DNA of 23,574 bases from a virus (lineage: Duplodnaviria > Heunggongvirae > Uroviricota > Caudoviricetes), in the IMG/VR virus record IMGVR_UViG_3300029843_000030, one strand, 5' to 3'. Position 1 is the first letter of the stretch. Every line of letters starts with the position of its first letter. Both the position numbers and the translations under genes were made by a program. The notes under the pieces were generated by a model. It worked only from the letters and a program-made list of their open reading frames with translations. It had not been told where the DNA came from and searched no databases. This document shows positions 15,041-15,788 of the stretch, piece after piece.

Positions 15041-15107
15041 TCTGTTGTCGTCAACAGGCAGCGTGCTATCATCGAATAGTGTTCTATCCTACTCCGTGAG
15101 GTTTACC
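15041..15107 (+). promoter_or_regulatory. Putative promoter and palindromic operator for the ParD/ParE-like operon
   Basis: TTGTCG -35-like, 16-nt spacer, TATCAT -10-like; palindrome CTGTTG-TCGT-CAACAG overlaps the -35; GTGAGG Shine-Dalgarno before the antitoxin ATG. Confidence 0.4.
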
Positions 15108-15365
15108 ATGCGTACAACCCAACAATTCAGCATTACATTAACTAACGAGATGGCTGACATGGTGCGCGCCCGTGTGGCTTCCGGTGCCTATGCTTCAGAA
15201 AGCGAGGTCATTCGTGAAGGGCTTCGCGCACTGAATGAGCGCGATAAAGCAATCGAAGCGTGGTTAACGCATTCAGCCGCCCCCTCTCTTGATTCTATCC
15301 GCGAAAATCCAAACAACGGACGCTCCATTTCACAGGTTCGCGCCGCGATTCGATCCGGGAAGTAA
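15108..15365 (+). CDS. ParD/CopG-type RHH antitoxin (85 aa from internal ATG)
   Basis: MRTTQQFSITLTNEMADMVRARVASGAYASESEVIREGLRALNERDKAIEAWL: RHH fold pattern typical of ParD antitoxins. Immediately upstream of the toxin gene. Confidence 0.75.
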   Translation: MRTTQQFSITLTNEMADMVRARVASGAYASESEVIREGLRALNERDKAIEAWLTHSAAPSLDSIRENPNNGRSISQVRAAIRSGK

Positions 15366-15370
15366 TCTGC

Positions 15371-15670
15371 ATGACATATGAAGTCATCATTACTCCTGAG
15401 GCCGAACAACAAATAATCAACCTGCACAGATATATAACGGAGAAAGCAGGAAGCGTCATTGCTGACAATTATGCCAATGCGCTTCTTGATTATCTTGATG
15501 GGTTTTCTACATTCCCGCATCGGGGCAATAAACGCGATGATATTCGCCAGGGGATGCGGGTAACTCATTTCCGCCACAGAACGATTATTGCTTTTGCCGT
15601 TGATGGCAGAAAAGTCTTTATTGTCGGTATCTATCATGGTGGGCAAAGTTATGAAACCGATTTCTTATAA
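15371..15670 (+). CDS. ParE/RelE-superfamily toxin (99 aa)
   Basis: Starts 5 nt after the antitoxin stop. C-terminal RVTHFRHRTIIAFAVDGRKVFIVGIYHGGQSY resembles the ParE core. Confidence 0.75.
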   Translation: MTYEVIITPEAEQQIINLHRYITEKAGSVIADNYANALLDYLDGFSTFPHRGNKRDDIRQGMRVTHFRHRTIIAFAVDGRKVFIVGIYHGGQSYETDFL

Positions 15671-15753
15671 ACTTTTACCCACATCATTCCGGTGTTAGAA
15701 TAAACCGTCCGCCCCCTCTCTTACTGGCGGATTCGTAGGCTATATAAATCAAA

Positions 15754-15788
15754 GATCCCGGCTCATGTTTGTGCCGGGATCTTTTTTC
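15754..15788. terminator. Intrinsic terminator between convergent genes, possibly bidirectional
   Basis: 8-bp stem GATCCCGG/CCGGGATC with 11-nt loop followed by TTTTTT on the plus strand; on the minus strand the same hairpin is followed by TTTGATTTAT. Confidence 0.6.

Follow-up and report, generated by a model that had tools for sequence, protein, structure and literature searches.

The closest described relatives of the parDE toxin-antitoxin (TA) pair analyzed in this study are chromosomal ParD-ParE complexes, including ParDE3 from Mesorhizobium opportunistum (5CEG and 6X0A), ParD1-ParE1 from Caulobacter (3KXE), ParDE1 from M. tuberculosis (8C24), and ParD2-ParE2 from V. cholerae (7R5A). The pair lies on the plus strand of a 23,574-nucleotide stretch of DNA from a virus of the Caudoviricetes (IMG/VR virus record IMGVR_UViG_3300029843_000030), which in its whole length is referred to here as the window. 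As in those complexes, the antitoxin gene comes first, the antitoxin has a ribbon-helix-helix (RHH) domain, and the toxin has the ParE fold, with the beta-alpha-alpha-beta3 topology that is also seen in the chromosomal toxins. The chromosomal complexes gave the best profile and fold matches to the pair, yet toxin identity is only 13 to 24%; furthermore, the C-terminal half of the window antitoxin has no match to a ParD model, and the window pair is located on a lambdoid prophage.

Two prophage-borne systems are also comparable. PaaR2-PaaA2-ParE2, from the Escherichia coli O157:H7 cryptic prophage CP-933P (5CW7 and 5CZF), likewise places a ParE-fold toxin on a lambdoid prophage; however, that system is made up of three components, among them a dedicated regulator, and its small antitoxin does not bind DNA, whereas the present cassette has two genes and its antitoxin itself carries the DNA-binding domain. 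The identity between the two toxins is about 19 to 20%. ParE_SO/CopA_SO of the Shewanella oneidensis prophage CP4So (7ETR) is another prophage-borne ParE-type pair and gave a profile match (E = 2.5e-4); however, its antitoxin is named CopA, whereas the antitoxin here matches a ParD model, and its structural match was weaker (TMq 0.59). With regard to genomic position, the relBE and hokD genes of the K-12 cryptic prophage Qin and the hokD cassettes of other lambdoid prophages occupy the same slot as parDE, immediately upstream (in the direction of phage transcription) of a gene encoding a 92-amino-acid protein, the DUF968 gene (ydfU), and Q. These families are unrelated to parDE, RelE being an RNase and Hok a type I membrane toxin, and they share the orientation of the phage genes, to which parDE is opposed.

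Copies of the pair in the Stx2 phage ArgO145 and in RefSeq E. coli genomes are 96 to 100% identical at the DNA level and are already annotated as antitoxin and toxin; the ArgO145 copy lies near int and not in the nin-equivalent region. The parDE pair is therefore already known, having been named by PGAP, by PHROGs, and in the ArgO145 record, and it is an ordinary element that had been read correctly. Literature searches by protein accession, or by ParDE together with lambdoid or Stx prophages, found no experimental paper on this pair.

In this study, it is concluded that the pair very probably constitutes a self-contained type II ParD-ParE moron cassette, located at the nin-equivalent position of a lambdoid prophage that resembles Qin and Rac. 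The cassette is present or absent between homologous flanks and has its own terminator, and a candidate promoter of its own is suggested by a consensus match and by conservation.

Identification of the antitoxin and the toxin

The features of the cassette are as follows.

15023 to 15793 (771 bp): whole exchangeable cassette, comprising the promoter region, parD, parE, the 3' block, and the terminator; both edges set by comparison with E. coli UPEC129
15042 to 15057: inverted repeat CTGTTG-N4-CAACAG (perfect, 6+4+6), candidate ParD operator, overlapping the -35 hexamer
15045 to 15072, plus strand: candidate sigma-70 promoter, TTGTCG-16 nt-TATCAT, with a TGn extended -10; 9/12 consensus match plus conservation
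15108 to 15365, plus strand: parD, antitoxin of 85 amino acids with an N-terminal RHH domain; hidden Markov model (HMM), PHROG, PDB sequence, and PGAP matches
15371 to 15670, plus strand: parE, toxin of 99 amino acids; HMM, PHROG, PDB profile, AlphaFold2 model, Foldseek, and PGAP matches
15671 to 15750, plus strand: 3' untranslated block, with a hairpin TCCGCC/GGCGGA at 15708 to 15731 and a promoter-like TTTACC-16-TAGAAT at 15674 to 15701
15751 to 15787: intrinsic terminator with a G+C-rich stem of 12 bp and a T6 run, the hairpin being of equal stability when read on the minus strand; folding energy and covariation

The parD gene starts with the ATG at 15108, preceded by a Shine-Dalgarno sequence, GAGG, at 15098 to 15101, and ends with the TAA at 15363 to 15365. 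Its product scored above the cutoffs of both Pfam ParD_antitoxin (PF03693; 32.1 bits against a cutoff of 21; E = 1.6e-7) and TIGR02606, the model named "ParD family antitoxin" (53.8 bits against 46.2; E = 1.5e-14), with matches that span residues ~6 to 51, which is the RHH part of the protein. It also matched phrog_6494, "antitoxin" (E = 1.7e-56), and all of its PDB sequence matches at E < 0.01 were ParD-type antitoxin chains (3kxe_C, 7b22, 8c24_C, and 5ceg_A), either from structures of ParDE complexes or from ParD structures. The identical protein WP_001260977.1 carries the PGAP name "ParD family antitoxin."

The parE gene (ATG at 15371; TAA at 15668 to 15670) encodes a protein of which residues 5 to 94 align with positions 1 to 89 of the 89 positions of Pfam ParE_toxin (PF05016; 41.5 bits against a cutoff of 23; E = 2.1e-10). 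The product also matched phrog_5232, "toxin" (E = 3.9e-43), and the identical protein WP_001297793.1 is named "RelE/ParE family toxin" by PGAP; no NCBIfam model matched the toxin at E <= 0.01. Since PF05016 mixes ParE and RelE, the subfamily was tested in two ways, by comparison of a toxin profile with PDB sequences and by fold. The profile was built from 87 homologues, from a search that yielded 1,184 representative clusters at E <= 0.001. Its eight best PDB matches were all ParE-type, namely, 6x0a (E = 5.4e-12), 8c24, 7ycs, 3kxe, 5ceg, 6xrw, 5cw7, and 5czf, one of which is a ParE-type toxin named PrpT, and no RelE, YoeB, HigB, or YafQ chain was matched at E <= 0.01. The AlphaFold2 model of the toxin (pLDDT 90.2) has a beta-alpha-alpha-beta-beta-beta topology with two helices of 18 to 19 residues (strands at residues 4 to 7, 62 to 67, 71 to 78, and 81 to 89; helices at 9 to 26 and 28 to 46). 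When this model was used as a Foldseek query, ranks 1 to 23 were all ParE-type structures (TMq 0.72 to 0.83; root mean square deviation, 1.4 to 2.6 Å), and the RNase-type toxins RelE, YoeB, YafQ, and HigB fell below all of them (TMq 0.4 to 0.63).

These results bear on the alternative that the toxin acts not as a gyrase poison but as an mRNA interferase of the ribosome-dependent RelE/YoeB type. PF05016 spans both branches, which have a fold in common, and the PGAP name allows either branch; however, the PDB profile matches and the separation of the Foldseek scores both point to ParE, as does the ParD-type partner (TIGR02606), and a ribosome-dependent activity is considered very improbable. On the basis of sequence profiles and the predicted fold, the toxin is assigned to the ParE gyrase-poison toxins and not to the RelE/YoeB/HigB RNases.

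An earlier note on this DNA, made from the sequence alone, had described an RHH antitoxin followed by a ParE/RelE-fold toxin, and the two antitoxin profiles, the PF05016 match, and the AlphaFold2 fold agree with that description. It had also proposed an HMM assignment of the toxin to the ParE or the RelE/YoeB subfamilies; both genes match named families, and the PDB profile and Foldseek comparisons give ParE.

Limits, exchange, and distribution of the cassette

On the plus strand, the antitoxin ORF (open reading frame) precedes the toxin ORF, with a gap of 5 nt, TCTGC (15366 to 15370), between them, and all ORF-supported neighbors, with Q (12438) at one end and the cro-like gene (~20498) at the other, lie on the minus strand. 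The order, the spacing, and the antisense orientation of the pair had all been stated in the earlier note, which had further called the pair inserted. Comparison with E. coli UPEC129 bears this out: UPEC129 matches the window at 14001 to 15022 and at 15794 to 15948, and between these same flanks it carries 483 bp with hokD (locus L092, 2018 to 2500) instead of parDE. As the UPEC129 homology stops at 15022 and resumes at 15794, the cassette was delimited as 15023 to 15793, which is almost exactly the interval of 15041 to 15788 that had first been marked. The left homology break recurs, at 15012 to 15025, in ArgO145, Salmonella, Stx2a phages, and hokD-carrying prophages.

A scan of genome contigs yielded only two loci, from Salmonella and Noviherbaspirillum, so that most of the material for comparison came from IMG/VR loci and from genomes of E. 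coli. The region from 13001 to 18000 is 100% identical to a metagenome-derived IMG/VR contig (L010), and the prophage of E. coli T309.Ta3, which adjoins potC, is 99.2% identical over the same region and 99.9% identical over 14001 to 17000.

The 771-bp cassette contains two ORFs under selection and no third gene for a separate regulator. When 40 distinct homologous cassettes were compared, the third codon position had a diversity of 0.043 in parD and 0.074 in parE, compared to 0.004 to 0.021 at the first two positions. This 3- to 5-fold excess in both ORFs indicates that parD and parE are under purifying selection as coding sequences. It might be argued that the pair is a decaying, nonfunctional relic in a defective prophage, since the nearly identical T309.Ta3 prophage has several pseudogenes and an IS903 insertion and since Stx2a phages have lost the toxin. 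However, both ORFs are unbroken in about 80 loci, with variation that is biased toward synonymous changes, the promoter region is less diverse than synonymous sites, and the terminator has undergone compensatory changes, so that decay is scarcely credible.

The left flank of the cassette (the 92-amino-acid gene plus DUF968) was found at 8,462 places in 4,509 of 5,426 complete E. coli genomes, and the parDE cassette was found in about 324 genomes (~6%). When six prophages were sampled evenly from the ranked list of left-flank matches, hokD was located within ~2.7 kb of the slot in all six, in some of them along with further accessory genes such as QueH, an alpha/beta hydrolase, or AbiH. In K-12 Qin, the order relB-relE-hokD-rem lies upstream of ydfU (DUF968) and ydfT (Q), and positions 13643 to 14989 of the window are homologous to ydfU and to an unannotated stretch before rem, which confirms that the two slots are equivalent. 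The presence of relBE and hokD in this neighborhood of Qin, given in the earlier note, thus agrees with the gene order there, and the recurring TA slot that it had proposed is seen with hokD in UPEC129 and in all six sampled prophages and with relBE-hokD in Qin. These comparisons support the view that the slot between the replication genes and DUF968-RusA-Q in Qin/Rac-like lambdoid prophages exchanges unrelated TA cassettes, namely, parDE, hokD, and relBE. The cassette was also considered as a hok/sok remnant; this was rejected, since 15023 to 15793 has no similarity to hokD cassettes.

The same cassette is found elsewhere. In Stx2 phage ArgO145, the equivalent of 15025 to 15948 is present at 96% identity in the neighborhood of int, bordered by an anti-repressor gene and by ead-like genes, with parDE again opposite to its neighbors, and a Salmonella genome carries parDE with other flanks. 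Judged by these sequence contexts, the parDE cassette moves between genomic positions.

Terminator and 3' block

In the terminator, 15751 to 15762 are paired with 15773 to 15784, and the rest of the T6 run extends to 15787. The hairpin has a predicted energy of -23.4 kcal/mol (z = -5.1), and none of 200 shuffled sequences was equally stable; it was absent from a simple scan because its loop is longer than 8 nt. Across 24 distinct variants, 99% of cells were paired, compared to 39 to 54% in slid controls. Compensatory double changes were found at two pairs (A-U to C-G and U-A to G-C), and a third pair alternates among G-C, G-U, and A-U. The case that the hairpin and T-tract form a real intrinsic terminator, as judged from energy and covariation, is solid. 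The earlier note had reported a strong hairpin with a T-tract after the toxin gene, and the energy and the compensatory changes in relatives agree; it had also placed the terminator between convergent genes, and convergence does hold, although the minus-strand partner is an unlisted 27-amino-acid ORF and not the 288-amino-acid ORF.

On the minus strand, the hairpin has an energy of -22.0 kcal/mol (z about -5), and the U-tract is interrupted (CUUUGAUUUAU). Because the stability of the hairpin is much the same in this orientation, it is plausible that the terminator would also stop minus-strand readthrough, as the earlier note had suggested. The hokD cassette of UPEC129 also has an intrinsic terminator at its left edge, in the sense of the phage genes (ACCCGCTTCGGCGGGTTTTGTTTTTT). 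With terminators in both the parDE and hokD alleles, each allele puts a terminator ahead of the 92-amino-acid gene-DUF968-RusA-Q block.

These observations raise the possibility that the cassette mainly serves phage gene regulation, where the two-way terminator would gate readthrough from the early operon into this block, ParE-triggered SOS would feed back on induction, and the TA pair would be a component of a switch rather than an addiction module. The stability of the minus-strand hairpin and the minus-strand terminator of the hokD cassette at the left edge of the slot are consistent with this proposal, as is the known induction of SOS by ParE (PMC10203498). However, the minus-strand U-tract is interrupted; ~96% of flank places lack parDE (8,462 places versus ~324 genomes), which makes the cassette dispensable for the phage; and the same cassette occupies an unrelated position in ArgO145. 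The PfiT/PfiA TA complex, which appeared among the Foldseek neighbors, is a further point in favor; it sits on a Pseudomonas Pf prophage and affects phage production. On balance, a regulatory role is unlikely.

The 3' block occurs essentially only with parDE (310 versus 324 genomes). Its diversity is 0.04 to 0.054, which is near neutral and no lower than that of synonymous sites. Its hairpin (15708 to 15731) is conserved; among loci, the C-run in the loop has a length of C4 to C8, and the stem has undergone a single wobble change but no compensatory one. A search of the block against Rfam gave no family at gathering score, the best being anti-hemB at 23 bits versus 49.5. A small RNA of ~80 nt from the block, which the promoter-like match, the hairpin, and the terminator had suggested, was rejected on these grounds (near-neutral diversity, no compensatory change in the hairpin, occurrence essentially limited to parDE loci, and a subthreshold Rfam score) and is kept as an unproven lead; the block is most simply the 3' untranslated region of parDE. 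In IMG/VR loci L066, L068 to L070, L072, and L073, the 3' block and terminator are swapped for a small lipoprotein-like gene (MN[RK]..C....FAISGC) exactly at the toxin stop, which places a recombination breakpoint at the parE stop codon. Recurrent right-hand breakpoints at this stop (15668 to 15670) indicate that the 3' block is swappable too.

Candidate promoter and operator

The hexamers of the candidate promoter are TTGTCG at 15045 to 15050 and TATCAT at 15067 to 15072. A promoter scan of 1.6 kb found 3 sites, with 1.9 expected by chance, and the consensus match alone is therefore no evidence. The block from ~15025 to the parD ATG is present in four independent genomic contexts, and both hexamers are kept in four independent left-flank contexts, the -10 being TATCAT or TATTAT. 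The stretch with the repeat and the -35 is the least diverse noncoding part of the cassette (0.012), followed by the -10 (0.024) and the 5' untranslated region (0.028). Because all three are less diverse than synonymous sites (0.043 to 0.074), promoter and operator functions are plausible, and 15042 to 15072 is regarded as a sequence-level candidate for both.

When the 135-nt intergenic region was subjected to dinucleotide shuffling, 15% of the shuffled sequences contained at least one inverted repeat of this size. Among relatives that differ in their left flanks, the core, GTTG-N4-CAAC, is the only invariant part of the repeat; changes at the outer pairs are uncompensated. Of the promoter overlapping a perfect palindrome that the earlier note had reported, the site, the overlap, and the perfect repeat all exist; however, the repeat is short and at chance level when taken alone. 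Two further candidates were set aside: a promoter-like TTGACG-18-AATATT on the minus strand (15054 to 15025), which is at chance level and was given no weight, and a second palindrome, ATAG-N4-CTAT (15079 to 15090), which is disrupted (ATGG) at about half the loci and so is not a constrained element.

Orphan parD in Stx2a phages

In Stx2a phage LC727840 (locus L003, 3001 to 4062), parD is present under the same promoter, only 6 codons of parE are left (MAYEVPH*), and the rest has given way to a lipoprotein-like ORF together with a protein of the HTH_3 type. Compared to the window gene, codons 1 to 47 of this orphan parD, which encode the RHH, show 9 synonymous and 0 nonsynonymous differences, and codons 48 to 85 show 11 synonymous and 12 nonsynonymous differences. 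About 51 phage records match at 80 to 90% identity, and the 11 that were listed match the promoter-parD stretch only; the orphan layout is likely to hold in those ~51 records. Many Stx2a phages thus retain a parD gene without parE, in which the DNA-binding half is under strict purifying selection and the presumed toxin-binding tail has diverged.

The orphan gene may be a retained repressor or an antiaddiction antitoxin. An extension of this idea is a conflict between prophages in which orphan ParD would repress or neutralize a resident parDE, in an antiaddiction or antidefense role, with, separately, 15671 to 15793 encoding the ~80-nt small RNA from a promoter of its own; this combination is regarded as improbable.

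Flanking genes

The following features lie outside the cassette.

12438 to 13259, minus strand: Q antiterminator
13256 to 13630, minus strand: RusA
13643 to 14692, minus strand: DUF968 protein
14694 to 14972, minus strand: 92-amino-acid gene, phrog_1212, left flank; heads the conserved 92-amino-acid gene-DUF968-RusA-Q block
15798 to 15878, minus strand: 27-amino-acid hydrophobic ORF (MTWPEAFTTAGIAMAVALVVYSICRWG), right flank; converges on the terminator
15875 to 16741, minus strand: 288-amino-acid mosaic ORF, with matches to phrog_660/5117 (residues 1 to 135), phrog_14306 (123 to 220), and phrog_924 (230 to 288)

The ATG of the 27-amino-acid ORF overlaps the stop of the 288-amino-acid ORF as ATGA, and 8 nt separate its own stop from the terminator hairpin. 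No annotation covers it in T309.Ta3 or ArgO145. The frame is intact at 72 related loci, its diversity at codon position 3 is 3 times that at positions 1 and 2, and, irrespective of parDE, it occurs in 1,309 of 5,426 E. coli genomes. This number is far above that for parDE, and the ORF is kept beside hokD in UPEC129, so that it was rejected as a part of the cassette. It probably represents a genuine small gene for a membrane protein of lambdoid phages, widely distributed and for the most part without annotation. The 288-amino-acid ORF, a mosaic of at least three PHROG families, may be a fused or decaying gene; in the corresponding region of T309.Ta3, PGAP annotates a DUF551 fragment only. Farther to the right lie the replication genes and the cro-like gene (~20498), on the minus strand.

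Elsewhere in the window, other ordinary lambdoid prophage features were observed: two copies of the small RNA STnc100 (8995 to 9201 and 9479 to 9684, minus strand) and the small RNA DicF (22242 to 22293, plus strand). Three tRNA genes (11110 to 11356, minus strand) lie downstream of Q and are Arg, Arg, and Ile by the T309.Ta3 annotation.

Discussion

We postulate that in a lysogen, parDE would be transcribed constitutively from its own sigma-70 promoter, independently of the repressed early operon and opposite to it. ParD dimers, or the ParD-ParE complex, would bind the promoter region through their RHH domains, probably at or near the 15042 to 15057 repeat, and repress their own synthesis, and the C-terminal tail of ParD would wrap around ParE and neutralize it. 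Once ParD was no longer made and had been degraded, free ParE would poison DNA gyrase, with DNA damage, SOS induction, and growth arrest as the result. ParE toxins have been reported to inhibit gyrase and trigger SOS (PMC10203498), and the prophage-borne ParE-type pair ParE_SO/CopA_SO is reported to maintain the excised Shewanella prophage CP4So (PMC8706911). By analogy, the net effect of the window pair is most likely prophage stabilization, that is, addiction.

Several points weigh against reading the locus as a self-regulated, gyrase-targeting ParD-ParE addiction cassette. The C-terminal 34 residues of the antitoxin (52 to 85), which are presumed to be the toxin-binding part, lie outside every profile and PDB alignment; such antitoxin tails are generally poorly conserved. 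The inverted repeat is statistically unexceptional, and the -35 element by itself could account for the conservation of this stretch. DNA gyrase is the default expected target of a ParE toxin; it is an extrapolation from the family and not a certainty, because the ParE-fold neighbors PrpT and PfiT bear other names. In addition, neither protein matched any PADLOC defense model.

This last result bears equally on the main rival explanation, in which the same cassette has been selected for anti-phage defense or superinfection exclusion. It can be envisioned that, upon infection, transcription of host genes would cease or ParD would be degraded, and that the freed ParE would then abort the infection. 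The abortive-infection gene AbiH beside hokD in the slot of one sampled prophage is in keeping with such a role; likewise, the moron layout suits expression in a lysogen, and PHROGs places both genes in the category "moron, auxiliary metabolic gene and host takeover." However, the PADLOC comparison was negative, and the literature, searched by accession or topic, yields no experimental data on the pair. A defensive role is therefore possible but doubtful, and prophage stabilization by a ParD-ParE moron is preferred.

In conclusion, the significance of this locus beyond its correct annotation is small; once characterized, the toxin would be one more ParE and not a new principle. The slot that it occupies is useful for the annotation of prophages and for the study of how TA systems are disseminated across the prophages of E. 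coli, Shiga-toxin phages among them.

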